A stretch of DNA of 40,546 bases from Sphacelaria rigidula. Taxonomy: Eukaryota. The position numbers and the translations under genes were made by a program. Shown piece after piece: positions 1 through 40,546 of this stretch. Location: assembly GCA_964200075.2 (NCBI GenBank), contig CAXNAA020000010.1, positions 1-40,546 of the forward strand, read 5' to 3'. Within the stretch, counting starts at the first letter, position 1; every line of letters begins with the position of its first letter. The notes under the pieces were generated by a model. The model was not told the DNA's origin. It did not search any database and saw only the letters and a list, made by a program, of their open reading frames with translations.

Positions 1-1279
1 CGAACCACCGTTGCTGCTTTCAACGACGATCTGACTCGCAATTTCGAGCAACAAATGGCCCAAAATACCCCCCCGCTATCGTAGGATGACTCGAGGGATG
101 AGGTCGTCCGTATGAAGGTCATTCGTCATGAATGTAGGTCAGGGAAAACACGGCTTTTGAGTTAAACCTCGTTCGTTTTCTCAAGACCATTTCGAGAATC
201 CACTGTTTGGTGATGCCTCAGAAAACCTTGCGTGCTGGCTTCACCAAGAAGTGCAATTTTGCGCAGTACCTACTGGGTAACCACACTCAGTCGCAGTCGC
301 ATGACCTTATTGCGCCTGATCCATGCCCGATCGTGCAAGTGATCAAGTGATATCGGCATCAAGGGTCCGTCTGAGTTACAGCGCAACATAAGCAGCACAC
401 CACAGGGCACACACCTTCCAGCGCCGTTCTATTCAGTACAACACAGAAAACAGCTGCATCGCAATGGATGTATCTATATGTATGAATGATGAATGAAACT
501 TTGCGAATTCTGTGAAAAAAATGACGGGCATTCATCACGCAGTATAGAATGCGCGTCGCTGCCCGTGAAGAGTGACACGCGAGCGTGTGCTCCGCCTTTT
601 GAAGGCGGCTGCTACTGCTTTTCAGTGGATATATTTAGGAACGTGTACCACGCAGTTCTCAGCCTTGAGGCCCACCAAACATCGAGGGGCTCGAGTGATA
701 CCCACGACATCGCAATATGCCTTGCCTAGGTTCAGGGGTGCGTCGCCTTGTCAACCTAAGCAGCCGGGAGAGTAATTTGACATGCGCTTCCGTTAGAAGC
801 CACAGGGGTCTTTGGTTGCCTGATCGATCGCTTGATTGGCTCAAATAGACTGATCCACTACTGTTACGTCATGATCGCAAGAAAGGCGCGGCCAAGGAAA
901 ATACATGTACCGTAGCACTCACTGAAAATAAACCTCGAGCACAAAAAGGATAACAGAGAGTAGGAAAACCAAAAGGAAGAAAACCGGGTACACTGAAAAA
1001 AAGACACCAGACTAGAAACGGTCCAGAGGAACCCCCAATAACCTCCGCCCGACAGGGCTTGAAACGTGAGGCCGCAGGAAACACCCAAGCTAACCGAGGG
1101 CGTAGCTTGTAGCTCGCGACTCAGCTATCTGGGAGTCGTACCAAAGTAGGAACTGTTAACCACTAATCCATCAAAAAGAAGTTCTCGCTGTTCGTTGTTT
1201 CCCTCGGCACTGCTGCGAACCGTCGCACAAGCGTAGATTTGGCGAAATTTCCCCGAAAGCTTGATTCTCAGGGCCCATA

Positions 1280-4200: not shown

Positions 4201-7200
4201 CTCCCCCGATCGGAATCTACATCACCGCTGGAGTGACTAAAGCCCCCGCCAGAATTCACTGCACTCCCCCTACTTGGTTGGATCGTGGCAGCATTGTCGG
4301 CTGCCCCAGGCCCACAATTTCCATCGTCATGGCTCCACTCGTTTTTTCCGTCCTTGTGGTCCGCGGTCGGTGGAGCGGGCGGCTCGAAACCGACCCCACT
4401 GTCGGCAAGTACGCTCAGGGAAGCTTCCAACGGCGCCGTAAGCGAGTTATTGTGACCACTGCCGCCACCCCCAAGGGAAAAAGAAGATCCAGCGGTACTC
4501 TGCCAGCTGTCTGCTTACCAAGGGAAAGACGAAAGGCCGCGCGGGTCAGAGGCTGCCGGGCACAAGAGATAGTCAAGAGCAGACTCAACTCCGAAATACT
4601 GCGCATTTCCATGATACATACCTCAAGATGAAGACTCCTCTGTTCAAGGAATCCCTCCCTGTGACTGTCTGCACTTCACGAAAATCATGTGCTGGTATAC
4701 CACATACCGTACATCCATACTTATCTTGGGTAGGCATCTTGTGTTGCCACGGCTTAATTCCTAGGGGGTCAACTAATGTGTGATAGTGAATCAATCAATC
4801 AATACATCAATATCCATATCCGTGCACTAAACCACAACAAACCATTTTCACCTCCAAGGGAAACAACGAGATCGTGTCTTTTTCCAAGTCTCGGAACCAC
4901 CGGAGAGCCGTGACGGCCGACTCCACCACTCCCAATTCCACCACCCCCAGCCCCTCCGAACACACGCTCCCTCCCCAGCGCCTCGTCCTCAGACAATGTT
5001 GCACTTGTGTACTCCATCCGTAGACCACTTGGGTCGGGGTCCGTCGTGAGGCGGGACAAGGCATCACTTAAAACCTCATTTCTGCTTCGACATGGTGGTA
5101 AAACGGGGTATTGTGCAGAAAGTGATGATGGTTGGGCAATTTCACCGACCGAGCTAAACACGCAATGCCCAGCATGTCTTGTTGCTGCCGTGTATAGACC
5201 CAAGGCCACATATACGCCTACTTGGCCGTAGTGTTGCTGGTATTACCAGCACTCACGCATTTATCGGGGGCAACCCGCATGTCTGTGGCACACCCCATTA
5301 AGGCTAGCAAATGTCACAATGACACACCGCGACACTACATCGACATTTGTCGTCCTTCGTAAATACGCGCGCACAGCTTGCTTGCCAAAACGTAATGCCT
5401 TGGTAAGATAAACTTATGACGATTTTTTTCTCCCAACACCCAACAAGTTGAATTTGAGGAACCTCCGTGAACATCTCAACCCGTTCACATCGAACTCAGG
5501 ATTTGACCTTCGAGTGAGTCGCTCGATCTCTGAGTCTCGCTGCCGAACCAGACCCCTCAGATCCTCCTCTGCCTCACGAGCATTTTCTTCGACACCCTTT
5601 GGGAATTCCGAAAACGGGATGGCGCCGCCGTGTTAGAACCTTGCCGCCAGCCTAAACGCGACGAGTTGAACAGTATTTCTCCCATGACATCCCAGAGAAC
5701 AGTTTCGGTCTAAACCTGACATCGTTTTGTTCATCACGTCCTTTGTGGTGAACCGTTGTACCCTGAAGTCCATCTTTGCGAAATGGGTGATATCGGCAAA
5801 TTTCAGTGCCACAGTCATAAGATATGCACGAGGCTTGTCCGCCGAAAATATACCTTCCTCGTCCCATGGGAAAAGCGGGTGTGTTTTTCAGTTCCCGAAA
5901 AATAAAAAACGAAGGCGGGTACGGTTTCTACTTCGCTAGCCTGTGCTAAATATAGTCGCGGTTCTTGTGTGACATGTAAATCACAGAACGATCATTCTTT
6001 TGATGTGAAGTGGAAACACCACAAGGACTCCCTCCATCATCTATTCGTCCGACACCGAGCCAGCTCCCGCCATGAGGTTGTTACCTGTAGCCGTAATTTG
6101 AGTTTGTCGAGTCGCTCAAGCGCAGCGAGCATCTCTCGCTCTTTGCGACAGAGCGAGTCTTCGAGAGAGCTGAAGCAGTGGAGTAGCGTTCAAGCACCGG
6201 GAAAGAGGGATTGATGCCATGAGAAACTATAGTCGCGGCACGAAATTTAACCATAAGAAACCATAGTCGCGGTACGCAATTCGCCCCCCCCCAAAAAAAA
6301 ACTCGGGAAGTCTGCTTGACCAATATTCCTTGGTTGATGGCTGACGTCAGCCATGTTCCCCTGGAGTGGGGGGGGGGCATTTAGTCAATCAGATCTGATG
6401 AGCTTCTGTTTGGCCAATCGCAAAACCGCCTGCCATTTTAGCCTCCTCTCTAGAAGTATAGTAACGGCGGGGTACTGATGGTAGGCTGAGAAACTGGAAA
6501 TTCTGCCCTCCGACGGGTAACTTTGGCTGCTGAATCCACACACGGAATCAAGTGCCACTTATCGAACTGACTGCATCTTGCTACTCCGACAAGGCCGACA
6601 AGGCGGACCAACAGCACCGATGAGAGTTCAAATGCGGAGATTGGGAGATCAACTTGGATGGTCTGACGTGCTCTCCAAATAGCACAACTTGCCTTGTTTT
6701 TCTAGATTCCTCTTCCGCGCGTGATCGTGCTTCGAATGTGCATTTCTCTGCCGACTCCTTCGCCTGGAAATAACCCGACGGGATATCGGCACGTCTCTGT
6801 AATGTGAACTACAATGATTTTCGGATATCGCGACGTAGATAGCAGCGGATGCTAAGGCAAGTGCACGGTTTGTCGGTAAAGACCGAAATCAGCAGTGCAC
6901 CCGCATTCAACACATATATCCTGTTATCCACAACATTTGATGATGAGATGGAGTTAAGAGGAAGGGGTCAAGATAACAGGGTGATGCAGCGAGGTGATAC
7001 AGTGGGAGGTGTACGTAATAAGGAAACCAATTCGGCTAGTTCGCTAGGGGGTGCACTCTTGGCGTGTAAAGTCGCGGTTGAACCGCATCAATTCGCTTGC
7101 GAAGACCTGCGACAACCTGCTGATATTTCTTCAATATCGACGAATCAAATTGAACAGAGGCACGTCTCCCTAGTTTACCTGGGTTGCAGCCGCCATTTGC

Positions 7201-10200
7201 CGTCGAAGGGTTGTTATTTCAGCCTCCGTAACCTCGGACCCTCTGTTGCTTTCCCCCCCTGACCCACCGACGCTACCGCTACCGCTGTCGCCGCCGCTCC
7301 CACTTGCAGCACTGCGGCCGGTGTTACCACCACCTGAGCCAACTTTGCTCATGCGAGCTGAAAGCTGTGATACTTGCCTCTCTAAGCCGGAGCCCTTCGC
7401 CTCAGAACTTCTCAGCTCGCCCTGTAGCGCCTGTTTTGTTTTCGCGCGTCTTTCCCATTAGCTACGAGAGAGATGAACAATTTGCGGTTGCGGCTCATGT
7501 TCCATGCGTTTAGTGATCAGCACTTGTTGTTTTTACTAGTCAAACACGTGTAGTTTGATCCTAAGGTGCTCCAGCGGTCACACCCTTTTCGACGAGCGAA
7601 AAATGGTATCATACGAGGAATGGTTCGTGTTCGCGACGGAGAGTTAAAAAATGCGCCGCTCCATTATGCTGAGAGAAGATGACAGACGGGATGTCATCGA
7701 ATCCCACAAAGCAGCAAACGTGCCTGCAGAAAGGAGATTGACAGTCGGGGGAGCTATGAGACCACGTCGACATGTTGTGGGCACCCTCAAATCTCTCATC
7801 AGAACTTGTTCAAAATTGAACATCTACGTTATATGACGACCCAAGGACTCGCCTGTGGTTTTTATTAAGTCCGTGAAGATTTCGCAGTGTGCCTTACCTG
7901 GAGGGCAACGACTACGGCCTTGGACTTCCGTCGAGCATCGGCTACCTCCCGCGTCCTCTTTTCCACTTCTTCTGCCAACTGTTGAATTGACGACCCACAC
8001 GACCACCCATTTACCCCGAACAGGTGCAGAAGCCGGAGGCGGTGAAAAGTAGGTGGCATGGCGCGTGAGGAGTAACAAGAGCTCATCATGTTCCTGCGGG
8101 TGAACACGAGGTCTCCCGCCACACAAGACACAACAAAACGTGGTTGCGGAACGCCATCTTCTGTTTCCTGTTCTGTGTTCGGTATCTCTTTCGTGATTTC
8201 GGGTAAAGGGTCGTACGTGATCAGCCTTCCCTGCCTACTGCGCATATTGCCTTCCGACACCATGTGTAGCCAACGTTATGCCCTTCACGAGACCCCCCTA
8301 CTCGGAACTTCGAGGATCAGCAATATGTTCGATTTTCTACATGATGCGTGAACTAGTAGCAGAAGTCGAGCAATGCTACGGTGGGGGGGCACTTTTCAGT
8401 CCAAAACGTTTCTGAGGCTGCACACTACGACCCAGATGTTTGCCATGGTGAGGTTCCTACACCTAATGAGCCTCAGAAAAACAGTGCACTCCTACCGTGG
8501 CATTGCTCGGTCGTCAACAGAGGTCTCCAGAGCACTTCTCTGCGATATACGTCGTAAAATAAATAGGCAGGTTACGTTGAGTACCCTCAACCTCCAAGAG
8601 CCCCTTATATGTCTTGGCAGAATCGAGGTATTGTTTGCGTCTATACCGCCCCGTGCAATATGCCTACGCACTCGTTTTTTCGCGTCGTCCTGCACGGTCG
8701 CCAGATTTCGCTCGTAGGTTCTTTCTGCAGCTCGCTGTCCTGCTTCCGCTTCCATCAAACGGCGCTGAGAACTCGCCTGATTTCATCGTGAAGTTGTTGT
8801 CAACAGGGATGGATGTGCATGGGGTCGAAATTCTGCATACTGGCGGCCACGTACGAACGGAATGTCGATAGAGCAGGGTGACTCGTGTGCCCATTGGGAC
8901 GTACGCGTATTCGCACGGTAAGGGTACTGAGTTGAAAACGGGTTTGGTGCTGCTGGAATAACGTAGCTGTCCATTCTGTAGGCTGCGATCTTCCGCTTGA
9001 CTTGGGATAGGGTTGGCGTGGTGCTGACGGAAGGGATCTCAGGACTTATGTCTTCCCCGGGCTGAGGTACATGCTTCACACCTTTGCGTCATGTTTCCGC
9101 TCAGCCAAATCATGGAGTCACTGGCGCAAGGCGCGAACTCCTGTGGATAACGGTCTTTCTGCAATCGCGCAGGGGTCCCACACATGAAGAAAAACATACC
9201 GTACATGTTCGAGTTTACTTGATTTCGAAATACGCCGTTCACACACGTACCGAGGGGGATGGGTTGATCCCTTGAGACCACGGACTCATCCCGAGGAAGG
9301 GGAAGGGTTCAAAGTGCGACAAGTAAAGAATGAATAAATAAATACACATCGTAAAGAAGGTGATGTGACTGTTCGTTTATATTGATGAATGATCGTTGAT
9401 AGGGGTCTCGCTCGCCTGTGTTTCTCGCAAGGCTTCATCTGCCTCTCTCTTCATGGAATCTAGCGCCTCCTTCAGCTTTCGACTGGCCTCTGCCGCTGCC
9501 CTGAGCATTGGTTGATTCGATTGGTTCATTTGTTGTCGCATATTGACGTATTCGCTACGAATACAGCCGTGGTCGCACGGTGGACGTATCCATGCTAAAT
9601 GAACGGAAACACTCACTAACCGAATCTCGAGGGCAACCTCAAAAAAAGGGAAAGAGCGAGAAAAGAGAAAGCAGGGAGAAAACAAAAAGATAATAAACTA
9701 GTCTTGATGCCGAGCTAAGAGATAGTATCGTTCTTGAGAGGATCTGCGATAGGCCCCTGCCAGAGCCTCAGATAAGAGGCCACACAAAGAGCAACGCCAT
9801 CGGAGCACGTCACACTTGAGCCCTCTGGAGATGGCACACAACATGTATCGAGGAGAGTGTAAGATTTGACCGTAGAATTTTATAGCGTATAGACGCGTGT
9901 AATAGAGTAGTACGTAGCATGGGGGGGTGGCAATTGCTTCAGTCCATGAGATGAATACAACCCGACAATGATGCAGTCGCACGAACGCATTACGGTTGTC
10001 CTCATCTGATATTGAAAACACCGAGTTGTCTCCTACTGTGCACGCAATCCAGGTCAGTCTGGGCTATACTTACACATGCAGGAGGTTCCTTCCACATTTG
10101 TTGTCGTGCCTGGGGTGTGTGTACCTCCAAATGTTGTTCCTCGGGATAACGTGTGAATATGTTACATCAAATTATTGTTTTTAGGACCAAATTCGAGGTC

Positions 10201-13200
10201 CAATACCGCCGGGGAGACGCTCACTGCCTGTAAATGTGTTGAACACCGTACTGGCTTTCGTCATGCGCAACATCCTGATGTAGCGCCATTGCCTCTGCAG
10301 TTCGTATTTTTTGCATCACCCCCACCTCTTCGAAGGAAAAAAAACACACATACCCAGCTCATGAAATCAGAAGGGTATGTTCACCTGCAAAGCATTGTCT
10401 ATCTAGTCCTGGACAAAATGGAGTATGGTTCATACCTCTTCTCTCGACGGTCAGCCGCCTCTAGCTGCCCCTGCGCCGCCTGCCATCTAGCCTCTGAGAC
10501 TTCTAGTTCTTCCTCTAACCTTTGCACACTTTCCGCCGCCCGTCGCCCCTCCTCTTCCGCTTTTGTCAACGTTTTCTTCAAGTCCTGTTTACGCAAGGGA
10601 AGTAAAAGGTGGCAACAATGACCCAGGTTGAATTATTTGTAGTCACATATTACCGTCCAGGCTGGTGAAGGCGACCTGATCTGCAAGGGGTTGACTCGTA
10701 TTTTTATTCCAATGTTCGCGTTTCGCTCGGTGCTGTAGCGACCGAACCTCGACTTACGGTCGCATGGGTACGTTTAACATTTATTCAACGGCTGCTTCGT
10801 TCAGTAGTTCACGTATCGAAGTCATCAACCTCTGAATTTTGCCCAATTTCACAACGTTCAACTTCTCGGCGCTGGTTCGAACGACCCGTGCGGACTCCTG
10901 CGGTAGGGACGAGAGAGGATGCAGGCTTTTAGGTCAAGTATACGAACATCTTCACCACCTTCCATGAACCGTTCATTCCGCCGGGGGGCTACTTTGATGG
11001 AAACTGCGGTGCATTTCCGCAACGCAGACATTCGCGATTTGGGTCGTGGCGCAAGGGTTTGCAGCAAATCCTGCGATTCAGGTCTCAAATCTGGCACAAC
11101 CGTACTGAACTGCACCCACGTCGAGCTCATAAGCGTGCTTCTCGGCAACGTCTTCCGCGTCGGCAAGCCTTCCCCTAGCGCCCGCGCCCTCGCTCGAGAG
11201 CCTTGCGTTTGCCTGGCTCAACTGAACCAGCCGCTGCTCAAGCAAGGATCGCAAGGATGTGTCGATTTTGGAAGAAAATATACACAGGGGTAATGATCTA
11301 CTCCAAGTGTTGGCCGGTACGCGTAAAACGAAATGTGCGGGCGAGTGGAGTCCGCGCACGAATTCATCCATTATAATGAAAAACACAAGATCCAAATGCT
11401 TTGCCAGAACAAAGATACCGCAATCGAGTTTCGATAGGTGTGGTAAACCGAAATATTTCGCATGGTGTTTCTACCCGTGCTGATGTGCAGTGCCCCAAAC
11501 TGACAACAGGACGCGGTCAGACGATCCACGGATATTTTTCAAGTGAAGTGATATATATACATATATATATATATGTGTGTGTGCCATCAATGTTGCCGAG
11601 AGAGGCTATACCGTCGAGGTATTCACGTGTGTTGTGAGGAAGATTAGACAAACGCGTGATGGTGAGCGCACCTGAGCGCCTTCCCTGTCGCTCGCCTTGG
11701 CTGTCTCAACGGTTTGTTCCAAGGTGCGTCGTAGAGAGGACAGCTCCGACCTAACGACGTCGACACCGAGCAGAGAGCAACGATTGTAAATCTCCTTCGA
11801 GCGTGGTGCTGGAAGCATGTCGGAGCTATGGTGGAATCTCATCACGTCTGTTCAACGCTGGCGGTGAATAAAGGGCGTATATGTAGAGTCGGTGTTGTTG
11901 TACTGTTGCGGAGGTGCTATTTTTGGAGCGTCAAGAACCGTCATGGGTAGCCACCCGGCCGTGCTTGACCGAATAGGTGGACCGAGGGACGCACCTCAGG
12001 GCTTCGATCCGTTCGTCTTGCATCGCGGTTGCGACTTTTGCCTCGCTCAGCTCGTGCAATGTCTGTGTAGCATGAGAGCAAAGACGTATCACAACAGACA
12101 GGGTCACGCCTTGTGTCGCGCGAAGATACGCAGTGGCGTGCGTTTTTGAAGCGATTGTGTTGATTAGTTTCCGCACTACCTTAACCAATCCCCGAGGGAT
12201 CCAACCATGGTCATTGTCCACAGGATAGGCGTACCTCGGGAACCCCAAACAAAAGCACTTGGGGATCTGAAATGAGGTTTTAGCGAGGGCAGCAGGCGAT
12301 ACCATTTCTACAGCGCTGTCTGTGTCTGGACACCAAGTGGCAACTGATCTGAAATCGGAATATTTTCCCAAAGATAGGGGAGTAGGGCGATTGTGCTACT
12401 TGAAGCTACGAATGGGTGCACAGAGATACAGCCGGAGAAATGTACTACTGTTCACGCTTTGATGTCGCTCAGGGTGTCGTTTTTTTCCCGCGCTAAATGT
12501 TACCGATGTCCATCTCCGGATAAATTCCGCAACTTTCAGCTTCCGCATCTTTTGAAATAGAGCATGGAAACCTTCTGAAAAGGGTGCACCTTTTGTTCCC
12601 TGTCCTCGGCGCCCAGCTTCGCGGACACTTCCGTTTCGGACTTTGCGTGTGCTTCGGAGAGGAGCTGTTGATGCCGTTCTACATCCTTTGCCGACTCCTG
12701 CGTACACGGAAAAGCGATGTGCGAGTTTTGTCTAGAAGCGGGGACCACGGGACGAAGTCAGAAAAGATGCCGGTTTAGCTTTCGTCGGCTTTTGCACGCG
12801 AAGAGACGAGTGTTTTTTTTAATCGTGATGCATTTTGATTGCAGGGCAATGCCCTAGGAGACAGTCATCAGCATAGTCCGTAACCATGTGCTGTTCGTAC
12901 AAATAGCGAAAAGTTGTCGTCCCTGCGTTGTGTAGCCGTCATTCCTGCCGGGAATGTGAGACAACGCCTGCGTCGCCGTATTCTCGTTCACACGCAGCCC
13001 GGAATGGATGTAGGCACGTATCGTGCTTTTATCGTCCTTGAATTCAAAAGACTCACATGTCGGTCATGTGACAGTCAAACCGCTGAGGACGGAATTGCTT
13101 GCCTTCAATGTTCGTACCCTCTCTTGAACGTCCAGGATGAGGTCGTGCTTCTCCCGCTCAAGGAGTGCTAGCTGTAATCAAGAGAGAGATAGCGCAAGCG

Positions 13201-21254: not shown

Positions 21255-21496
21255 TGGCAGGGGTGCACTTGTTGCGCAAAAATTTATCCGGCTCAGGGGC
21301 TCCTAACGGTTCTAGATGCGCAAGAATGTGGATAAGGGCATTCCCGTTTGCAAATTCATTCGAGATATCCCTATAATAGCACATTGGAATAATAGTAATT
21401 TCGGCGCACTCTCACATATTCCATAAGTCGTGTTTTGGATGAGATAAAGGGCTCTTAACAATTTTAACTTCAGAATATATTTGTGCACCCCTACCG
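21255..21496. mobile_element. MITE copy 2 (same family)
   Basis: TGGCAGGGGTGCAC ... GTGCACCCCTACCG, TA flanks, colinear homology with 2786-3019. Confidence 0.8.
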
Positions 21497-21978
21497 TAGA
21501 ATCACCCTTCGAGTTCCGCGGTCAAATATTTTCTGTTTCTGGACCAACGAATCCGAGAGTCGTCTTCGATTAGTTATTTCAAACGGATCATCATCTGTCC
21601 GACTTGTGGAAAATTTCGATCTACTTTTTCATTTTTGCACAGGCAAAAAATGAAAAATCGACAAGCTTACGCTGAACGGTTGTGGGCTCACGTCCTACAT
21701 CACACGTGCCATTAAACGGCGTCATGCTAGCAGCGCTGCGCCAAATAAGTCATGATCATCCTCAACAGCAGCAAGATCTAGGATGCATGTAGTGCAGTCA
21801 TGGCAATGCAGTATTATTGAGGTTGCGCGTGAACCAAATTGAATAAAACGAGCAGTGATAATAGTCGGGGATGCCTACCTTTCAAATTTGGAATGGAAAC
21901 GCATAACTTGATGGGGGGAACGTCATGCACGTGTCCGAATATCAAATTTTTAAAAAATGAAAAGAAAACGCTCAAGAA

Positions 21979-22002
21979 ATATATATATATATATATATAT
22001 AT
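21979..22002. repeat. (AT)n microsatellite
   Basis: Direct reading of the sequence. Confidence 0.9.
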
Positions 22003-23889: not shown

Positions 23890-26800
23890 TTACCTCGTGT
23901 AAATGAAGAGTTGTCCGGCCTTATCCTGCATGACTCGCATGCCATCATCTATGTACACCACCGTCTGTTTTGTTACTGGTACATTCCCCAGGATCTGCAA
24001 CACACGAAACAGCGACGCGTTTGACGGCGAAGTCAGCGGGTTGGTGAGAATGCTTGTCGTCATGCAAACTGAATATTCCAGGCAGCAAGTCGTGAACTCC
24101 TTGTGTGTATTCCTTCGGGGTTATCTGCCGAAACAGTTTAGTGATATGCGTACCAGCGTCGAAGTCGTATTCCTCACTGCGGGCCGGATCATGGTGGAGC
24201 TGATTTGAATGTTATTTGATTGCTATAGAACATTTCCATGGCGCGGTGCCGCGTAGCACGAGTGCATAGCTGGACACTTTTAGCTGTTTCCTCGTCCCTC
24301 CCTTCAGATCGGTGCCCGCCCGCTTCTTCCCCTCTAGTTCGCCGACGATGGGTTGTCTCGCTTACCGTTTTCGCCACCTGTCCGGTGGGAAACTCTTTGC
24401 CCTCGAAGAACGACCCAGCCAGCGGGAGTAAAGGGACGTCTTCCACTGCCTTAAGCTGTGTCGATTCTACCTTAAGCTGCAAGAGATAAGCGTGCAAAGA
24501 ACAAGCGGCAGGTATTCAGAAGCGGTTTCACGGCGGATTTACGGCGCGAGTGTTACGTGTATCAAATAAATCAAGCAGTCAACTTTGTAGACGTACGTCC
24601 TCTGGATTCGATTGAGTACACTCGAATTTCGTTCCTCCCCAAGAAGCGCACCTCGACCACCTCGTTGTTGTCTCCTGACAACGAGCAATAAGCCTTGGTT
24701 GCAATGCAGCCCCCAAAGGTCGGCAGCAGCTTCCAAAACCCAACGAGGGGTATGGTTGTAAGTGGTAGCAGAATGAGATCCACCTGGTATTACAACAACG
24801 GGACACCGCAAAGTATCATTCTCGACGCCACTCTTTCTTTGCGTGGCTTCCATTGTATTTATCCAATAGCATGGCAGATAGAAATCAAAATGGAAAAGAG
24901 GAATGGCGACATGAACAAGAAAATGAAGGGACGCGGCTAAACAGAAAATATAATAGTTTGCGCGAGATCGTGGAAGAGGATATGGTCAGCAAAGTCCCTG
25001 TACCAGCACACGGTCAAGCACGCGACTGCTGCCACGATCGGCTTTTTGACGTCAATCACAGCAATTTATTATTATTACTATTATTATTATATCCGTCACA
25101 TTAGCTCAATCTCTCGAACCCGTGGTCACAAGAGTGCAAGGAACATACCACCCTTACCCATATACCAAACAGCCCGCAGAGGTAGGAATGCAACTACACC
25201 ATGAATACGATAGCGCCAAAGGAATGCACCTTCTATGCATCGCGACGCCGAGGCGTATTATATCATAGACACCGATCTGCTGCGTATCATGTTGGAAGTG
25301 CGCGTATTCACACGACCAACAATACACTGTCCCACGCCACACGTCATGGTGGACTACCTCATCAACAGCAAAGCCCTTCTACGTGCACCCATCTTATCGT
25401 GGGAACAACAACGTTTACCTCCGACTCCAATGAACCACTGCCACCGCCTGCTTTCGCCACTAGCGCCTCCTTCCCCGATCCATCACCAGCTACGACAGTA
25501 TCTTCTGCGTCCGCAAGCGGTTCCTCTTCAAGCGACCCCGATTTAACGAGGTCGACCAGCTGAAACGAGTGTGGAGGGGAGCGGAACGCTTCCAACGTCA
25601 TCAAGAAATAGGGGGAAACAGAACTCGCAGCTTGATTGACATGTGATACGTGAATCCACGGCAATGTGGTCGTCGTACTTTTCATTTTCGTTCACGTCAT
25701 TCCAGTTTCCGTGGGGGTATACAATGTACGGTGCGGCCAAGACAGCGAGTCACGCGAGCGTGGGCTACAGCAGTGGTTTGTCGAGGCACAGCAAAACAGA
25801 GCACGCAGTAAGCATATATCTTGTGACCGCGGCTGGGTCCCTCTGGGATCAGTTAATGTCTGACAATTATTCGATCAAATACATGTATTTTGGTCGAGGT
25901 TGTGCGCAGTCCCACGAGGGAGGGTCTGCGCTGTCTGGTAGTAGAACGATCTATATGTGATTTTACCGGGTCCACAAGCGAGTCTTCTGGAGAAGTGAGA
26001 CGAAAAAGACCGACACAATAGTTTGAGAGTGGCATCATTGTTTCCCCATCAAGTTACTTTGTGTTTGTCGCTTCCCTCGCCTGTGTCACGCGGCCGATGC
26101 GACTGATCCCCCAAGAGCCCGTCTGAAGCTGGTGAAGTTTGAAGAAAAGATCCGATTTTTCGGGGTCGTCGTAGCCAGCCTCCACCTGGGATTGATGGTG
26201 CGCGCAGACAGAGCCAAATCTTTCCATTAGACACTCTTTGGTATACTCGCAGCAGGCGTAGTTCCTATACGTTCATCAACATGAAATTATGTCAGCCAAT
26301 GAAGCGGTACCACTCGCGCTCTAAGGGATACAACCCATACCACTGTACTGCGTGTGCGCTAGTGTCGACAATTCATGTACATGGGGCCCTGAACCTTTGT
26401 GAGAAAAAAAAAGTGAGATTTCAATAGGTATGGTTCTTGGCTTGCTGCATGCTCGAAAAAATAGCTCTGCAAGTATTCCTCGAACTCCTCAACAACGAAT
26501 GCGACGTTCGGGAGGCAAGCATGCGATATACACAGCCCTGCTCCGTCGTCTGTATGCACGCTACTAGTACACAAACGAGCTGCAATCACTCACTCACCAT
26601 CTGGAAAAACGGAGACGCACGAAACAGCTCGACCGTCGTGTAGACCAATTCCCATCGTCCGCTGAGCTGTGCCCCCGTCAGGGGTCGGGCGACGGGCTGA
26701 ATTTGCGATAGCTGATCCACAAGATATCGCATGTCGTCCTTCGTCTTCAAGTAGGCATTTGATATGCCTGTAAGGAGAGTGACGTGTGCAGTTTTCAGTC

Positions 26801-30025: not shown

Positions 30026-30046
30026 ACACACACACACACACACACA
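30026..30046. repeat. (CA)n microsatellite
   Basis: Direct reading of the sequence. Confidence 0.9.
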
Positions 30047-30388
30047 GTAGCAGAATACAGCGGATATCACCCGACATCGCCGTGCTGTAGGGCATGTCTA
30101 ACGATGGTATCGCACAAAACGGACCCCCGATGTCTGCCCTTTTCGGTATATTTCTAACCAGAATTATAGTGAAGATGCCGACAGACCTACTCCGACTGCG
30201 ATCTAGAGGCAAAAATGCACTTTAAAACAGTGTTGATAAGAAAGGGCGCGTTGCTGTGTGAATTAGCGCAATGCCGTCCATGTTCAGTGGCGTAACTCTC
30301 TCAATTTTGCGTCAAAAACGACCTGCAAGCATTTTACGACAGGTTATATTCCATGCCGTCTCCTTGCCTCAAGATCACAAGAGCGGTA

Positions 30389-30457
30389 CTGACGTTATCG
30401 GGTCGAAAAGCGCACACATTTCACTCGAAGCCTCATTTTCCTGACGTTATCGGGTCG
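30389..30457 (+). promoter_or_regulatory. Perfect 17-bp direct repeat CTGACGTTATCGGGTCG in the divergent fibrillin/UBA3 intergenic region
   Basis: Copies at 30389-30405 and 30441-30457, with a partial CCTGACG at ~30483. The regulatory role is inferred from position only. Confidence 0.35.
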
Positions 30458-31243
30458 TAGGATAGCAACAGTCACTTATTTCCCTGACGCTCGTTGGAGT
30501 ACAAATTCAGCGTTCGTACTCACCAGCAGTGCATCAGTCGATATTATGCCGTGACCGGCCTCGGATACACATGTGTCGGTTCCGCATACACGCATTTGGG
30601 GGTGTGCGCGAGGTATTTTTTTTTTCCGGGATTCTAAAGAGGCACATTTGAAACCTATCAAGAAGGACTGCGAACCGTCTCTCGGAAATCGAAGGCCCTA
30701 GTACGCCCCTAGGACACCCGCATATCTTGGTTCAGCGGGGGTCGTTCTCAACACGCCGCCAACGTAAGCAACTGTGAATTCTCCACCGTGCTGCGGTGTG
30801 CATGACTGTTGCTGCGCCGCTATTTTAGCGGCATCCTCAATAACTTTCTTCCTGAATCAATTCTGTCAACGGGTTGTTGCGACACTGCCCTGAGGCTATG
30901 CACCCACACTGCTTCATCTGCTGTACATCTTCGGCCATGGTCCCGTTGTCGTGTGGTGCTGCTGTAGATCCGGCGTGTTCGACTCCACAGCTAAGTATTT
31001 AGGGTTTCCACAGCACTCTAAACCCAGTATAACAGTGGTTGCGCCGCATTTTGGAATCTGTAGCGTGGTTCTGGAGCAGGCCCTCGAACAAACACGTCGC
31101 AATTTTGCAAGTAGCCTGAATTTGGGGTTACGATCATTATTTGAATCACTCTCAGGATCATGTGACCGAGCTGAATAACCCCGACTATGCACTGCCTGCC
31201 TTCTTGTTCTACCCATGTTACCGATGTACCCCGAACTGCCAAG

Positions 31244-34200
31244 GCAATGAAGATGTTTCGATCTCAGCGATAGCGCCTGAGATCGACACTCCGGCCGCCA
31301 TCAACGGCGTAGACAATGGCGCCAACGCCACCGACGCCGCCGCCAACATTGACCCAAGCCAACGATGGAGAGCGATGGAAAAAATATTGGCCCGCGCTTC
31401 GCCTTTCGGCGCGGAGACTGGCCTCCTCCCCACCGGACAGTTCGAGCCATTCGAAAATGTGAGCCGCCGCATGTTGAAAGAAAGGGCACAACAACCGCGC
31501 TCCGGTGGTTGTACTGGTACAGGTTTACAGTTTGAGCGGAATGTTGCGAGCTCGACTCTACACAAATACGTTATCTCTGAGCAAAATATAAATTCCGTGG
31601 ATAGAAGCATGACGCTAGTGGCAAGGAAAAAGTTGGCGAGAACTGACGGGTAACGGGGGTGCCATCCAATAGTCCATGACACAATGTCAAGCAGGTACCG
31701 TGGGGAAATCACTTCATCGCTCAGGAATGCTCTGGTCTATTTCTTGGTGGTCACGCACCCCATCCATCGAACTGTATATCAATCGAACGCGATTTTCGAG
31801 GGACTTCCGGGAGCCTTTTCCCAACGCAGACACCTGCATTTGTCACTGTTCGAAGAAAAGGCTCCAGAACACGCAAAACGCATCTCGAAACAACAATATG
31901 TGAGGTCTTTCGCAGTTTTCTAGATCCCAACGACAAGTGAGGCGTCGTTCGGGCATTGCCGAAAAGTCTGTAAGTGCAGGTTTAGATCAATACCTGGCTC
32001 GTGCTGTGAGTCGCGGGACCAGATGGTCTACGCAACCAGGGAAGATTGCGTATCGATTTACTGGTTGAAAATTACAAAACACGTACAGCTGTTGTTTTCC
32101 ATTTAGGTTCTACTGCGCAGTACAGCCAGTGCTTTGCCCAGTTATATTTTTACTACCCTTCCAATAGACAATTCATGGTGAGATAAGCAGACTCGGTGAA
32201 GCATTTACCGTTTTAGCGCCTGCGGCCTGCAATTGGACGTGACAGTCCCGTGGAGGATGACGATGTTGTAGGCGAGGAAGATGATCTAGGACGTCCAGGC
32301 GCTTAACCCTTTGGAAACCCAGTGCTGTTTTTTGTTTTTGTGAGTCGGCATTATTTTGACCTGAAAATGAATGAAAATGATGCCGATTCACAAAAACAAA
32401 AATTGTAAATGGATTCCGAAAGGGTTGAACAGTTTTGGCGTAGTTATTTTTTTGCCAGTAGCATCGCAGCAGGCTACGAAGGTTGAGAGGGTGGAGTGGG
32501 GTCTCTAGCCATGTTTGCCCAAGACTTAGCAGCAGACAGCCGCGGATGGAAGCTGAGGTTCGTGGAAAGGACAAACTGACCACTGAGGCTCATTAGTGTT
32601 CCATGTGTGTGTCAACGCGTGCGTTCGTCCTGCTCAATCGTCTGTTCGGGTTAGGGAGGAAACTTCCGCGAACCTCCGGCACAAATCAAACTCTACACAA
32701 CCACAGCCGCACATCCCGCCTGGAGCCCGTACATCCCCGATAGAATGCACCACGCCCTTCAGCTGTCCATCAACAAACAGTTCAGTTGTGTTTGTTGACC
32801 ACATACATATAAGTGTAGCAGGTTGGCGCGATGGCCACTGTACTGTACTGTTGAAAATTGTGAGACAGCGTTGCCGGTGGCCCTCCCGTGTGCAAGAAAA
32901 ACTTTTCTACAGACTGCACTGTAATGCTGTGATGTCTGTGACGGGTGCATCTGCGTGTCAACGACCTTTCTATGTAGGTGTTGTGTCGCCACCACAACAA
33001 TTTATCCCGAACCCCCGGCTGAAGAAAAAAAAACGGCCTGCAATGTCACGGTCTTCAAAGAGATTAAATCCCAATAGCCTTCAACTATAGACCATATTCA
33101 TGCCTACCTCCTCCAGAAACTTCGACACAACTCTCCCCACCACAGCGCACGAACGAACGATCGATATTTGCCAACAGCTGGCAAAACAGGTACTCAACGC
33201 CTCCAGCGTAGGACGTTTTGCAGTGTCTCGATTGGTGTCATGGGTGGGCTGCTGTCGGGGACTCCAGTTCCGTGGTGGCTGTACATCCCTCAACGTATTT
33301 GAGGACGTGCTACACAGATTATACCAATAAATCACCAGTCTTCGCTTTTTTGCTCATTTACGCTTCACCCACCTTCTATGCGTTGTACAGGTGGCGGAAT
33401 ACTTGGAGGGCGAATTTAAGGTACTAGTTATTGGCGCAGGCGGGTTGGGGTGCGAGCTGCTAAAAGACTTGGCGCTCTCGGCCATCACCGATATCACAGT
33501 GATCGACATGGACTCCATCGACGTCTCAAACCTCAACAGGTGAGTGTCCGACGATCCAGACCAAACATTCACAGCAGCCATTGCCAGTTGTCAGGAACAG
33601 AAAGGACGACTGTTGACATGTGTCGGGCTCCCCTTACGTACGTGCTGTAGTACGCATTTAGATCGATGTGCGACAGATCGTGCTCCGGCAAATGCCTGTT
33701 GTGATCGTCGGGATCTACCGTGGATATTTACTACTGTGATTTACCGCACATACTGCGATCAGCTGGGCTTCGCACAACTCGCTGCACGGCTCCCTAACAG
33801 CATCCCCGCATGTTCATCTCGTCTACTGATCATATAAACGTAGAAGAGTTGCTGAAATCCAGGAAAAATCCTGTAGCAAACAAGCTCCCGTCCCCGCGCG
33901 CCGCGCCTGCCCTCGCTCCTTTCTCCGCGGACGTGTGTCACGTCGTGAGCAGGCAGTTTCTGTTTCGACAAAAGGACGTCGGGCGTCCGAAGGCAACCGT
34001 TGCAGCGGAGGCAATCATGTCCCGAGTGGCGGGGTGCAAAGTGGAGGCCCACCACGCCAAGATTCAAGACTTTGACGCAGACTTCTACCGTGAGGTGAGT
34101 GAGCTATACTTGTTTGTTTGGCCTTTACACAATGATGCTGCATGCTGCACCAGGCGTCGAAAGCAGCGTTAAGCAGCTTATCTTGCGTGATCAGGGCTGC

Positions 34201-37200
34201 CTTTTCTGGATTTCGAGCAGGGTTTAATCGAGCCGCGGCTACTGAGCACAGCTGGATTAATCTGCAGCGAAAACCGCGGTACGAGTCCGCTCGTTCACAC
34301 ACACATACATATGTATGCACAACTCAATTGCACTACCGAAACTGTTGTTTGTTGTCGCCGCACCCGGGCCCAGCGGCTTTTTGCTGACTTTTTTTTTTTT
34401 CCAACACCCGATTCCAGTTTAACGTGGTAATTTCAGGCCTAGACAACGTGGAGGCCCGGCGATGGCTGAACTCTATGCTCTGCTCGTTGGTGTCACAAGA
34501 TGATGATGGCAACGTAGACTTCAGCACCATCGTTCCCCTCGTCGACGGGGGCACCGAGGGTGAGTCTTTGGGATTCAAGTCCTTGAGCAACCACCGCGTC
34601 TCGGTGGTTTGATTGTTGCAACTGACCCGATTTCAGGTCGAATGGGTGTGGGTTCGATTTCCAACAGGTGCTCGTGTTTTTTTTCCTTCTGAAAAAATTA
34701 GATTTTTGCCTTTGAAAACGCGAGGATATGAGTAACGACGAAACTTTATTCGATGAAAGTCCACGCGGTGCGGAAGTGCTGACCCAATCTGCGATGCCAA
34801 ATGCTAGGAGTGTACCGAGGGCGATGTGTGCTGATCCCTCAAGGCCACGGGTTGGTCCCCCTGTTGATGAAAAGAAGAAAGAAGCATCGCGTACGGCACG
34901 TTGCACTCGATAGTCTCGTGCAGTGTTGACCATAAAATGGCCCGTTTGGTTTCCCTGTCCAGTTCAGCTGCTCCGTGACTCCGGATCTTGACTGCGTCTA
35001 TTGAGGTCCGTGACGCTGTAAACACCAACTAGTTATCGGCGATAAAATGATCTTGTATCTACTACTGTAGCGTAGTCCACCGCGGTGTATCTGGAGAATA
35101 AGAGTTACCTCGTTACCCCGGAGGCATTGTGTAAGCTTGTTTCGTCTCCTGGTTCATCGACGCTGTGTTGAGGCCCGTTGCTATGCTTCACCTCTGCTTT
35201 ACTTTCGTTGGCCGTACCTTCCACACTTCCCTTACATTTTGCCGCACAGGTTTCAAGGGCCAGGCTCGCGTGATACTTCCGCACGTGACTTCGTGCTTCG
35301 AGTGTTCTCTGGGCATGTTCCCCCCGCAGAAAGTGTTCCCCATGTGTACCATCGCTGAGACGCCTCGCATGCCGGAGCATTGCATCAGCTATGCGATGCT
35401 GCTGCTCTGGCCAAAACAGTTTCCGGGTAAGGGTTTCGCTTTTGAGAATCAATATACTGGGTTTTATATACCTCGGCATGGGGTGGACCGGTGTCGACGG
35501 AGGGGCCCTGGCAGCGGGAAGCAGTACGACTGGCATCTGTTCTGAGGAACAGTGCAAAATTGACGCTAGACGTGGAATAGACAAACATTAATGTCGCTGC
35601 TAGAGCGGAGTTGTCCTGCCTTGTTTATCACCTCGCTGTGCTTCTCCGCCTCGTCCGCCCTATCGTTTCGCTGCTGGATCAATTGACAGGGAAGAAGCTG
35701 GACAACGACGACCCGGAGCACATGAAGGTATACTATGCTGTTCTTCCATGTGTTGCACCCCGTCTTTCACTAGACCCCTCGAGCCATTCTGTGAGACCTT
35801 GCAGTGAAGAAGATTGAAATGCTGTGTCCTTTGTTGTCTTTGCCTCCAACACTGTCGTTTCCCGAAAGGAATTCGAGCTCAAGCTGTCTAGTAGTCGAAC
35901 ATTTTGTTACTCGGGTAGGACGTGCCCGTACCCAGTTTGCCAGGATGACCGTTCCTGATTAATCTATTCCGCTGAAGACGAGATGAATTCACGACCCGCC
36001 TGCACGGCTCAGCGTAATTACGAGTCCTCCACCCCCCAAATAGACTCATGCTAGCGCTGTACAGGACTCCGCTTCAGCAAGTCGTGGAGAAGTGAGCTCG
36101 ATCGACCCGCCAAAAAGCGTTCCCCGAGAAAATCATCGTGACTCTTTGATGACAAGGGCTGTACAGTACAGACAGAGAAGCGTCTCCGAAGCCCCCCCCC
36201 GCCCCAGATCCGTCCTGGTGTCGACAGTTGCTTTTATTCCTCTACTCGTCATACATTTGCATAGCGTTTCTACTCACGCCCTGCATTTGTTTGGTGAGGG
36301 ATAGAGATAGTGCAGCTTTGTTTTCATTTGCGATACTCGACCACGCCAACCATGTTTACCAATTATTGCTACCGACTTGCTGCAGGTTCTTCAATTTTTC
36401 GGGCTCAGCATTGTTACTTTGTCATCTTTTTCGATGTTGCATTCTGCAGTGGGTGTGCGAGCAGGCCAAGGAGAGAGCCGACGCGCATGGCATCGCCGGG
36501 GTGACGTACGAACTGACCCTTGGTGTGGTGAAGAATATCATCCCGGCTGTGGCAAGCACGAATGCGATCATCGCGGCGGCGTGCACAAACGAAGCGATCA
36601 AGCTGCTGTCCTACGCGGGTCAGACAATGTACAACTATATGATGTGAGTGGGATCGAAGACGGGGCTCATGGTAAGATATACATGTGCACAGCACACGGA
36701 AATAGCGTTGACTGTCGAGGTCAAGTTGATAATTTGTTCTCCGTGAATGGAACGGCCATACCACGTCGATAGCAACACGTCCCGCCCGCTCTGTGAAGTA
36801 AAGCGGCGTCGGGAGAAGCTAGTACTACGGTGGGGGACCACGTAGGAAGCCCTGGTGCTGTTCCTTTTTCTTCAGCGAGTGTTTCAGTTTTGTTTTTGTT
36901 GGGTACGTCTATCATGCGACCACGGCTGGACCACTGGGGGGTCAGTTAAAGCGCGACAATCAATCAATCACTCATCAATCAGTGTAGATACTGGTGGGAC
37001 AATCAGTGCACAATTAGGATTGTAGGGTTGGGGTGTGTGTTGAAGTGTTGTGCTGTGCTGTGTTGTGTTGTGGATGCCCGGCGCCTGTGTCCTCGTCGTC
37101 GTGCTTTCTTGCCGGGAATAGCTGGGGACCGGCAGTTTCCATGCATATGTTTACAGGGGCATCGAGCTGTAGATGGACTGTCAAAGCACCCCCTTCCTCT

Positions 37201-38859
37201 CTTGTTTGTTGCCACAGAAGGAACCCTGTAGCCGCTCTCAACGGGCAAACCGCTCGCAACGCCCCCCCTTCCCTATCCTCTGCGTTTTGTTTGTGCTTGG
37301 AAAAGTCGGATTTACTTTCTAGAACTTCACCTGCGACTAGACATCTGTTGCTTCGGGATAACCCGCGAGAGCTCCTAACCTCAACCCCCATCGCCGTGTC
37401 CGACATGTTCCGTCCATGTTAGGTACCAGGGAGCAGAGGGTATTCACGGCCTCACCACGGTTGTTGATAAGAGGAAGGATTGCCTGGTGTGCGGAAGTTC
37501 TCAGATGACGATGGAGATCGACCCCGTGAATACTCTGGCCTCGCTAGTAGAAAAACTGTGAGTTAAAAACGTGCACCCAACGCTTTTCGGCTCTTGAATA
37601 GAAAGCGCACGCGATAACGGGTTGAGCTACGTGATGGAAAGAACGACGGTCATGGGTTGCGTTGATGTCGCACCTTCCCGGTGCTTTCGTGTTTTTGCCC
37701 ACTCGATTTAATGTTGGAATCACCTTCGTTTGCGCGTTGGTGTAGATCTCTCCCGCTCTCTCCGCGCGCGCGTGTGTGTGTGCGTGTGTTTTTTTTCTGT
37801 TTGTGTGTCTATGCGTAGATGCGTGAACCATCATGGCTTCCAAGACTTGATCTTGTGTTGTCGTCCCATCTTGAGTCCATTATTGACACCAGGGCAGGGG
37901 ATGTTGTGGGAGGATGTGGTTTCCTTGTCAATCGTGACGACCGTCTATACAAGGATTATTTACCCGTCAATCACGAGGTGGCGTTAATCATGAGGTGGCG
38001 TACACGTCAACAATTCACGATGCTCCAAGTTTTTGCTCAAGGTTAAGTTGGCTGGAGGGGGGGTACTTTCAATCGAAGCTCTTAAGCTGCCAGACGTCAG
38101 CAGAGGTCTCAAGCGGAAGTTGATTCACGTGTTGAGAGTGTGCCACTGGACTGCAGGAAGATGCACACGGTTTTTGAGAGGCTAGTAAGAGTTGATCGCA
38201 CTTGGAAAAAGCGGAGATCCCAACAGACCGTACAGGGAGGGTGGGTTCAGGGAAAACACGAGGTTGGTTGACGAGTTATCCACAACGTACGTCGGATCAC
38301 TCTTGCAGCTGATGCAGCTGCTTGCAGCGGTCTTCACACTGCTCCTGCTGTGATTTTCGTCCAACGTGTGAAGTACTTCTTTGAGCCCAACAAAGAAGAG
38401 GTGCGGGACTTGGAGATGTGCCACCCATTGCGTCAATGTACGTATCCATTCTGCTTCACGACACTTTCGTATGTATCGGGTACAACTGACAACGCATGGT
38501 TTATTTTCACACAGTCCGTTTTTTATCAACCCAGTAGGTCCAAAGGAGAGACCACGCAAGTTTCATATCTTGCTTGTTGTGCATATGTTTTTTTACAGAA
38601 GTTGCTTCGACCGGCTAACGCACCCCCTACTCCCTTTTCTTGCTACGCAAACATTCGCAGGGGTCTACGAGAGCCATCGCTGACTCGACCGGGCTTAGTT
38701 TTGTACATGTCCAACCCTGTGGCTTTACGGAAACAGACGGAGCCCAATCTCAAAAAGACTGTGGGCGAGCTGTGTTCGGATGGGGATGTGCTGGCGGTGA
38801 CGGAAAAGTATTGGCATGACCGATCACTCTCCGTTGTGGTTCGCTTCAACAAAACATGA
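31244..38859 (+). CDS. UBA3: NEDD8-activating enzyme E1 catalytic subunit (UBA3)
   Basis: Exons ~31244-31458 ([16 protein letters not shown]), 33391-33539 ([33 protein letters not shown]), 33953-34094 ([14 protein letters not shown]), 34418-34559 ([22 protein letters not shown]), 35250-35426 ([24 protein letters not shown], catalytic Cys codon 35345-35347), 35690-35727, 36450-36643 ([15 protein letters not shown]), 37423-37557 (CLVC), 38661-38859 (E2-binding domain). All are joined by GT-AG introns in phase. The GQARVILP arginine is typical of UBA3. Start codon not located. Confidence 0.95.
36749..36865 (+). rRNA. 5S rRNA-like sequence (probably the head of a SINE or a pseudogene), in a UBA3 intron
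   Basis: ~117 nt GGAACGGCCATACCAC...GAAGTAAAGC...CTAGTACTACGGTGGGGGACCAC...GGTGCTGTTCC. The 5' GGAACGGC pairs with the 3' GCTGTTCC (helix I). Box A/IE/box C-like internal promoter, immediately followed by TTTTT. Confidence 0.85.
36749..36981 (+). mobile_element. Candidate 5S rRNA-derived SINE (SINE3)
   Basis: 5S head, then a T-rich linker, a ~50 bp 3' region similar to 4740-4810, and a (CAAT)n tail. No clear target-site duplication seen. Confidence 0.65.
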
Positions 38860-40546
38860 GTATGCTGGTGGTACCGATTATGATGATATGGCTGTTATTT
38901 TCGACGCTGTCGACTACTTCATCACATCATGACTCTTGACAGCCGACAATGTGTCACAGCTTGCTTCCGTCATGTTTCGCGCATGTCTTGGCGGGAACTC
39001 GGGGTTCAGGACTCGGTCGTCCGCTGGTCGAAGAGCAACACTAGTGATGTAGGCTTTGTGCCCCCCGCCCTCGTCGACGCGTTGACAGCGCTGTCGGCCG
39101 CTGCTGAGAGATCACCACCAGCCCATCACCTTCCCGTCGTGTATTCTGTGTTGGGTGTTTTGATGGTCTTTTTTTGCTCTGGGCGTTCTGTTGGCGCGTT
39201 TTTCTGTGCTGTGTAGCGGTGTCAGTCGTTTGTACACGCGGAAAAGGCGGATGGCGCGGTGCATGCGTGACGGTGATCGTTGTGATGGTTGTACTGCACT
39301 ACGATACTCAGGCGACGGTACTAAATATACAGTGTGGGGCCGTTTCGGTGTCGGGCACGTAAACGGTTGAATATTGTACAACTAGGGTGCTGGGTGTGTT
39401 TGTGCATATTCGGACGTTTCGTTTTGTTGAGTTGGTGTTTTGAGCGTGTAGGATCAGATGGGAGAATTCAAGACACTATTGCTGACATGAACATTCATCC
39501 TCTAAAATTTTACTTTCCCGTCATTTCTCGCCGCGTTCGATTAGGTATGATCCATATCTCGGCTTCGGTTCTGCTGTACTTCGTGCACTTTTTCGATCTT
39601 CCCCTTTTCAACCCGTCTTTCTTGCCAGTTGTTCATATTTGCCATTTAATCGCCGATCGTACGTCTTAGGCTGCAAGAAGTCACTCCTTCACCATTTTGC
39701 AGATGAAAAGGACATGTTTTTTATGCGTGCTGCATCGCGAATGATGTTCCTGTACCTTCATGGAAGATTTGTACTACCCGTGGAACGGAAAGCTGCCCGC
39801 TGCGTGGTTATCTGCTGAACATGCACCCTACAGGGCGAAAGGGGGAGCAGGACGCTGTAGCTACAACAGTGTCTCTACAATACTGCAAAGTGATGTATTC
39901 GGTTTGTTGATCCTAGAAGTTTTCTCTTGCTACGAGCTGGGCCAGCAGTAAATCCCGCATTCGCTTTCTAAACCACAACTTCTCAAGCTCCCAAATTAGC
40001 GCGACTTGAGCATACCGCTGTGAACTGCAGACCAACCTGGTGACACAGAGCACCGCCGCTGAACAAAAAATAAAAATGAAAGAAAATGTACTGCATAATA
40101 TATATAACCTCAACGACGGAACGAAAAAAAACGAGAATATGTCGGGATTCGAAATCATGACCTCCACGACCTATATCACTTTTTGGATCAAAGGGGCGCG
40201 GCCGTGTCACACGAAAAGTGTGATGCGGCGCCCAATTTGAGGTATTTTTGGCCGACACTTCACCACAATATCCTGGAAGCGAGTGTCGACAACATTGTTC
40301 GGGGTGCAGCTGTATTCATGATTATTTCACAGAGATATGGGATTCTTGCTATTTTTGCTGAAACTTCAACTCGCTCTAACTTCCTCTTTTTTCCCCCTCT
40401 GCACCACTTTTCCACATCCAACACGCCTACTTACAAGCTCACTGTTCGTCTACCGTCTTGAGCATAGTCGTCGTCCATCCCCGTCCGGCTTGTTTTTTTT
40501 TTTTTTCCTTATGGAAGGAGGAAACCCAACCCCACACTCAGCTCGC

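Follow-up and report, generated by a model that had tools for sequence, protein, structure and literature searches.

In the brown alga Sphacelaria rigidula, a block of 233 nt at positions 36749-36981 of contig CAXNAA020000010.1 (GenBank assembly GCA_964200075.2; positions 1 to 40,546 of the forward strand, referred to here as the window) consists of a full-length, decayed copy of 5S ribosomal RNA (rRNA) followed end to end, and in the same orientation, by a short retroposon, the whole lying within an intron of a UBA3-like gene. The reading favored here, with a probability of about 0.45, is that this block is a chimeric retrocopy of 5S rRNA and the short tail element, now dead. A previous sequence-only reading of the same DNA had proposed a 5S-derived short interspersed element (SINE) of the SINE3 type. 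From this proposal the 5S-derived head, the retroposon tail and the non-chance nature of their join are retained, whereas amplification of both parts as a unit is unsupported; the limits given for the block, 36749 and 36981, proved correct to within a few bases.

The head was identified by the search against Rfam that the sequence-only reading had suggested. Positions 36748-36866 of the forward strand match RF00001 over the entire model (1-120 of 120) with 72.8 bits, the gathering threshold being 38, and an E-value of 1.2e-13, and 5S is the sole Rfam family at gathering level within the 40,546 bases. Permissive Rfam scans of 1-13000, 13000-30000 and 30000-40546 retrieved no second 5S, and ARAGORN found no tRNA in the window. 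In the secondary structure of the head, helix I retains its eight pairs, one of them G-U, and helix V is broken by three non-pairs (36814-36855, 36815-36854 and 36817-36852), flagged by cmscan and recovered in a separate pair check. The head had been described as a 5S-like sequence with helix I intact and helix V in decay, standing alone rather than in a tandem array, and this description holds in each of its parts.

For comparison with other copies, contigs of four public sequencing runs (X1, X3, X4, and X6) were mapped to 36400-37500 at 80% likeness; X1, X3, and X4 are DNA-like, and X6 is RNA by software guess only. Contig depth over the unique flanks is ~65 in X1, ~27 in X3 and ~12 in X4, and the summed depth over 36749-36991 is three to four orders of magnitude above this value. 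On that interval 10,981 (X1), 10,550 (X3), and 7,794 (X4) contigs were mapped, in X1 mostly on the tail part. Comparisons of copies rest on contig counts, and summed depth is not to be read as copy number. Against the majority of the family, the head differs in at least eight positions (36775, 36779, 36785, 36800, 36814, 36815, 36817, and 36844), at which a letter other than that of the window makes up 97-99.7% of the summed depth of the runs X1, X3, and X4, the majority letters being backed by 69-116, 62-113, and 33-105 contigs, respectively. Moreover, the majority letters at 36814, 36815, and 36817, with 98-99% of the summed depth in the three runs, restore three Watson-Crick pairs in helix V, which indicates that the majority represents the ordinary 5S form and that the copy in the window is the damaged one. 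These three private changes correspond to 5S positions 66, 67, and 69, which we take to lie at or beside the intermediate element of the type-1 promoter in Xenopus numbering. With three pairs of helix V lost and at least eight departures from the majority form, the head does not qualify as a working 5S gene.

Full-head pieces are also present among the contigs listed (six in X1, six in X3, and five in X4), at single-copy depth and with 14-25 differences from the window; they start at 36748/36749 and stop at 36866-36874. Just before 36749, 70 contigs of X1 and 59 of X3 diverge into unlike sequence. Since the 5S-like contigs are bounded both at the start and at the end of the head, what is dispersed is the transcript unit and not the gene with its flanks, and this unit is scattered at tens of loci in the genome of S. 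rigidula. Also, the consensus of the letters before 36749 (36719-36748) ends in the same 15 letters in X1 and X3, with an agreement of only ~0.5, and terminates in a GGAACA-like word resembling the start of 5S; a short leader, or a partial duplication, may be common to some of these 5S-like copies.

At the other end of the head come a run of five T, a T-rich linker, a 3' motif and a (CAAT)n repeat, in the order already noted from the letters and now seen both in the sequence and by TRF. The five-T run would be a terminator of RNA polymerase III (Pol III) or, alternatively, the oligo-U at the end of a 5S transcript, copied along with the T's that open the tail. In X4, 14 contigs read from the 5S end through T4-5 into a conserved sequence unlike the tail of the window (agreement 0.57 and 0.89, behind 36868 and 36870), which is presumably the flank of an ordinary 5S gene. 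The five-T run is as long as the T4-5 of this presumed gene end, so Pol III should stop ahead of the tail. On the tail side, the similarity of many members starts at 36865/36866, a point marked by the loose ends of 404 (X1), 397 (X3), and 336 (X4) contigs, and tail-to-tail joints run from 36970 back to 36861. As the family likeness starts at the junction, a whole 5S is here joined end to end to a whole tail unit of ~110 nt. At the tail density of the window, six in 40.5 kb, a given 5S end would have a tail on its own strand starting within five bases with a probability of ~8e-4, and the join is thus taken as mechanistic rather than accidental. Besides, departures from the majority amount to at least 8 of 118 positions in the head and at least 4 of 109 in the tail (Fisher p 0.38), a similarity compatible with one insertion date. 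In the other tails, the letters ahead of 36866 yield a consensus in which a plurality-T stretch is followed by a terminal CTGTTCCTTC (four runs, agreement ~0.56). Both this ending and the CTGTTATCC plus T-run found ahead of the tail in copy T5 (Table 1) resemble the 3' end of 5S, and this likeness may represent a microhomology aiding a jump onto 5S rRNA or a relic of 5S ancestry.

The tail is a very abundant dispersed retroposon, an independent mobile unit of ~110 nt, and not the normal 5S spacer, an outcome that the sequence-only reading had named as one that would overturn it. A search with 36867-36981 (nhmmer) retrieved five further copies in the window with E-values of 1e-8 to 6e-6, and a profile made from all six tails retrieves the same six. 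No 5S or tRNA stands beside any of the five other tails (Rfam at E up to 10, ARAGORN), nor do their 200 upstream nucleotides show significant likeness to the head, the best of them, that of copy T5, being equalled by 56 of 500 shuffles. In X1, each tail position is covered by at least 128 contigs, compared with 69-116 per head position. Behind 36967, 36970 or 36974, 754 contigs of this run enter sequences that are only 36-38% in mutual agreement, and such unlike sequences after the (CAAT)n imply different genomic flanks.

The tail also contains a conserved stem-loop, in which four of the six pairs (36929-36934 with 36938-36943) are changed on both sides among the six window copies. Pairing is preserved in 86% of the cells compared with 72% in shuffles (1 of 500 shuffles is as high), and sliding the partner column lowers it to 22-61%; the sample for this covariation test is small, six copies, and the structure was read from the same sequences. 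A single mismatch, 36933-36939, interrupts the stem in the window copy, and it would be mended by the C that most of the family carries at 36933. The folding of the whole 233-nt block is no stabler than that of shuffles (z +1.06). Long interspersed elements (LINEs) that recognize their own RNA usually do so by a 3' signal made of a stem-loop and, behind it, a short tandem repeat. The tail has two traits of RTE-type short retroposons, a 3' microsatellite-like repeat and a conserved 3' stem-loop; termination of RTE-related short retroposons in microsatellite-like repeats is described in passages of PMC6007223.

Table 1. Coordinates of the composite block and of the other tail copies in the window.
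Feature	Positions	Strand	Basis and remarks
5S rRNA-derived head, full length, decayed	36749..36866	+	Rfam RF00001, contig majorities, pair check
Run of five T at the head/tail junction	36865..36869	+	Sequence; X4 contigs
Body of the short retroposon tail: T-rich 5' part, conserved core, stem-loop	36866..36956	+	nhmmer, contigs
Tail stem-loop, 6 bp and 3-nt loop	36929..36943	+	Covariation, majority letter, pair check
(CAAT)n-like 3' microsatellite, end of the element	36957..36981	+	TRF, period 4, 6.5 copies
Tail copy T1	9505..9645	-	nhmmer; without adjacent 5S; ~300 nt in common with T5
Tail copy T2	4674..4813	+	nhmmer; without adjacent 5S
Tail copy T3	25738..25892	+	nhmmer; without adjacent 5S
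Tail copy T4	12149..12288	-	nhmmer; without adjacent 5S; likeness starts near 36866-36870
Tail copy T5, longer form	809..948	-	nhmmer; without adjacent 5S; CTGTTATCC and T-run ahead of the tail

If head and tail moved together, other copies of the composite would be expected in the sequencing runs. However, no piece with head and tail collinear is present among the 32 contig pieces listed out of 30,062, which comprise the longest pieces and some at joints, and the longest listed piece on the repeat in the three DNA-like runs has 126 letters. The locus of the window is itself split into contigs at 36813/36847 and 36941/36948, which makes the lack of collinear contigs weak evidence. Joints between repeat parts are also found (15 of 37 joints and 12 of 26 sets of bridging letters being listed), the listed ones at approximately single-copy depth, each in X1 and most of them also in X3 or X4. 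Three connect the 5S end to the tail: 36866 to 36946; 36861 to 36911, with one letter between; and 36864 to 36911, with four letters between. Another leads from the 5S interior to the tail (36798 to 36937), and one, present as one contig per DNA run, abuts two 5S copies without a spacer (36871 back to 36749). Across these joints, which have short sides at 80% likeness, the tail is entered at 36911 (twice), 36937, and 36946, compared with ~36866 in the window. Taken at face value, they show abundant small RNAs fused in several ways rather than a single recurrent arrangement. Amplification as a 5S-headed unit finds, in the letters and contigs, no support from the joints, the tails without 5S, the five-T run or the private changes of the head.

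Based on these observations, a sequence of events can be proposed for the chimeric retrocopy, of which the order, the choice between jump and ligation and the kind of LINE are inferred. A LINE reverse transcriptase, RTE-like by analogy only, would start target-primed reverse transcription on the RNA of the ~110-nt non-autonomous element, with its stem-loop and (CAAT)n, and copy it up to its 5' end. The enzyme would then proceed onto 5S rRNA, entering at the 3' end of the latter, through a template jump or through an earlier ligation of the two RNAs. The product, a complete 5S with its U-run plus a complete tail, would have been inserted in sense into the UBA3 intron, and three later changes would have broken helix V and the intermediate promoter element. 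In such a scheme, the five-T run is expected, being the copied U-run of the 5S RNA continued by the T's with which the tail begins, and the differing 5S-tail, 5S-5S, and tail-tail joints form the pattern that serial template jumps would give. Moreover, the block has the arrangement of small-RNA/LINE chimeras, namely a small RNA that is 3'-complete, in sense, and directly 5' of the 3' part of a retroposon.

The block could also be what the earlier proposal made of it, a true 5S-headed SINE of the SINE3 type belonging to a low-copy family, with the window holding an old dead copy, although we consider this rather unlikely. In this case, Pol III would transcribe a master copy under the promoter within its 5S, passing a leaky T-run and reading on into the tail, and a LINE enzyme would recognize the tail and multiply the copies. 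The anatomy fits such an element: the 5S head is complete, the linker is rich in T, and the LINE-type tail, complete as well, includes the stem-loop and the microsatellite. Other loci also show head-to-tail joints, among which tail position 36911 occurs twice, and SINEs are thought to be born from such fusions. Also, the residual X1 depth beyond the majority letter, ~18-45 single-copy depths at 36814 and 40-140 across the eight positions, leaves room for a small subfamily with the letters of the window, of at most a few tens, and SINE3 elements arose several times independently according to passages of PMC10886601. Nonetheless, the five-T run equals the end of the presumed ordinary 5S gene, before which Pol III should stop short of the tail; the listed contig pieces hold no collinear head and tail and extend over at most 126 letters of the repeat; the junctions seen differ from one another; none of the five other window tails has a head; and head contigs number ~60-115 per position, compared with at least 128 per position for the tail, out of ~11,000 contigs mapped.

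Two unrelated events, that is, a 5S gene or pseudogene already present in the intron and a tail inserted later behind its terminator, by chance or by preference for sites near T stretches, would be an improbable origin for the block. Tails are dense, six in 40.5 kb, and RTE-related short retroposons insert ~10 bases downstream of a T stretch, as stated in parts of PMC6007223, and 5S genes all terminate in such a stretch; a weak candidate duplication, CTGGTG, occurs at 36852 and 36991. However, 49 of 500 shuffles score as well as this word, which is not significant, an adjacency of at most five bases on the same strand has the low expectation per 5S copy given above, and the likeness starts at or inside the T-run, leaving no room for the ~10-nt spacer and the duplication of the RTE signature. 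In addition, the other joints also put the tail directly on the 5S end. As for a 5S rRNA gene that stands alone, works and is followed by its usual spacer, the full-length Rfam match well over threshold, the intact helix I and the five-T terminator would suit it, yet it is very hard to reconcile with three helix V non-pairs where nearly all of the summed depth has pairing letters and with a downstream sequence that is a dispersed repeat. Passages of PMC11541908, moreover, place the 5S gene within the ribosomal DNA (rDNA) unit in Ectocarpus and, reportedly, in many brown algae.

Several observations weigh against the chimeric retrocopy. No partner LINE was detected in the window, since the 10 open reading frames (ORFs) scanned with Pfam, of 43 with at least 130 aa, contain no reverse transcriptase or endonuclease domain, one of these 10 being the UBA3 exon with E2_bind. 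The sides of the joints have only 20-47 letters (20-34 for the 5S-tail joints) at 80% likeness, and repeats can create such joints. No other complete chimera is legible letter by letter among the contigs listed, and the tail position 36911 that two joints have in common could point to a propagating subfamily instead of independent events. The resemblance of CTGTTCCTTC to the 3' end of 5S makes the exact junction ambiguous, and the whole tail family may have an old 5S ancestry. The human 5S/L1 chimeras often carry their 5S portion truncated and in antisense, unlike the one here (passages of 10.1101/2025.02.02.635956). Finally, a target-site duplication, which the sequence-only reading had proposed to look for, was found with significance neither for the composite nor for the tail alone or the head alone. 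The same test found none around the five other tails, and as these controls equally lack it, its absence at the composite is uninformative.

Two of the other tails belong to a longer form. Copies T5 and T1, at 809-1113 and 9505-9816 on the reverse strand, have a 5' part of ~130 nt, then a T/C-rich stretch of 50-60 nt and the tail; no tRNA or 5S signal was found in this longer form by Rfam, ARAGORN, and the shuffle test. Upstream of the other tail copies the consensus is plurality-T, which is no more than suggestive of the T stretch upstream of RTE-type insertion sites, because the T/C-rich stretch in T1 and T5 is possibly internal to the element. Outside the genome, a metagenome scan with a 22-base tail pattern gave 0 stretches, and a scan of viral contigs gave 0 matches. 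The sole match to a gapped tail pattern in the metagenomes (stretch L001) was rejected; it is coding-like, has no Rfam match and corresponds to about the chance expectation.

The host gene had been named correctly from the letters as UBA3 of a brown alga, its protein having the Pfam domains ThiF and E2_bind and a 100%-identical public record from Sphacelaria rigidula, with the nearest further relatives in Ectocarpus and other stramenopiles. The intron that houses the block in sense orientation extends over 779 nt (36644..37422, forward strand), and one contig of run X6 joins 36643 to 37423, with GT..AG borders and the 779 nt skipped. Since this spliced contig skips the whole intron, no effect on UBA3 is expected if the block is a one-off chimera. 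In X6, the tail is covered by contigs, the head hardly, and the intron around the element is uncovered, from which nothing is concluded on expression. In X4, the intron stretch 36659-36732 is without contig cover, which proves nothing, and the right flank of the tail is present. One contig of X4 that matches 36400-36657 carries 932 further letters toward the element, unlike the window, and there may be a strain difference within the intron upstream of the 5S copy. Downstream of the block, a (GTGTT)5.6 microsatellite at 37045-37072 has one extra unit in one X4 contig, and is thus polymorphic between samples.

Two further repeats lie elsewhere in the window. Positions 2775-3033 and 21252-21510 hold two copies of a ~250-nt repeat, 83-85% alike and with 25-nt terminal inverted repeats, which looks like a miniature inverted-repeat transposable element; one loose end before 36920 in run X6 resembles its terminal motif. 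A near-perfect hairpin occupies 32305-32426; its arms are 53 nt long and 79% complementary, its loop measures 16 nt, and its microRNA-like Rfam matches are sub-threshold only.

A 5S copy fused to such an element, along with apparently tens of dispersed 5S-like copies, would mean that the LINE machinery of brown algae also mobilizes Pol III RNAs. For comparison, the passages of the curated survey of Ectocarpus transposable elements (TEs) that bear on this matter report abundant LINE-dependent short elements, none of them with a named Pol III origin (PMC12477816). The locus is a concrete test case for the existence of 5S-derived SINEs outside animals and fungi, and its interest is that the question of how Pol III-headed SINEs are born can be put to the test here in an independent lineage of multicellular organisms. 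If it is a one-off chimera, it would be an ordinary by-product of retrotransposition. A bolder suggestion, which we regard as doubtful, is that S. rigidula has a genuine 5S-promoted SINE or, alternatively, that the CTGTTCC plus T-run motif of the tail steers the reverse transcriptase onto 5S rRNA repeatedly. With the former, brown algae would have their first defined SINE with a Pol III head, and the latter would spread 5S copies over the genome time after time; in both cases a SINE would be seen in the window at, or close to, its birth.

Regarding known systems, the literature searched yielded no 5S-derived SINE or 5S chimera for brown algae, although supplementary TE libraries could contain one, and the word SINE appears nowhere in the main text of the Phaeoexplorer preprint. 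In other groups, 5S-derived SINEs are known from fish, insects, and mammals, for example zebrafish SINE3, lepidopteran HaSE3, and fruit-bat MEG (passages of PMC10946416 and PMC10886601), and 5S-related SINEs are reported for Aspergillus fumigatus in a passage of PMC5063351. These same descriptions of SINE3 present a 5S-derived head followed by a LINE-type tail, as in the block of the window (PMC10946416; PMC10886601). Unlike SINE3, the block has a five-T terminator between head and tail, so that transcription by Pol III would not reach through into the latter, its head carries damage both in helix V and in the intermediate element, and the composite is known here from one locus. A 5S-derived sequence within a non-autonomous retroelement is also a feature of Cassandra and Ajax, terminal-repeat retrotransposons in miniature with 5S in their long terminal repeats (LTRs), according to passages of PMC10886601. 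However, LTRs, primer-binding site, and polypurine tract are all absent from the block, and its tail is of the non-LTR type.

For the tail, the nearest likeness comes from Ectocarpus, in which the TEs of highest abundance are LINEs of groups RTE-X, RTE, and CRE together with their short non-autonomous dependants, the latter being common in introns and having a 5' part of unknown origin, as far as described in parts of PMC12477816. Like the tail, elements of the RTEX-N1_Ec32 type are very abundant, short, and found in introns, and they have a 3' end in common with LINEs and a 5' part without known origin (same passages of PMC12477816); the host here belongs to another order, Sphacelariales, and the two are likened by description and not by sequence.

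For the composite, the comparison is with the mammalian U6/L1 and 5S/L1 chimeras, which are ascribed to template switching or RNA ligation, each event being unique and without further propagation (passages of 10.1101/2025.02.02.635956). They resemble the block in that the 3' part of a retroposon is preceded on its 5' side by a small Pol III RNA in sense orientation, the join being at the 3' end of that RNA (same source). In contrast to the mammalian cases, the host is a brown alga, no target-site duplication is visible, and the retroposon part is a complete short non-autonomous unit instead of a truncated LINE. Moreover, the tail ends in a stem-loop and (CAAT)n and not in poly(A), which suggests a sequence-specific enzyme.

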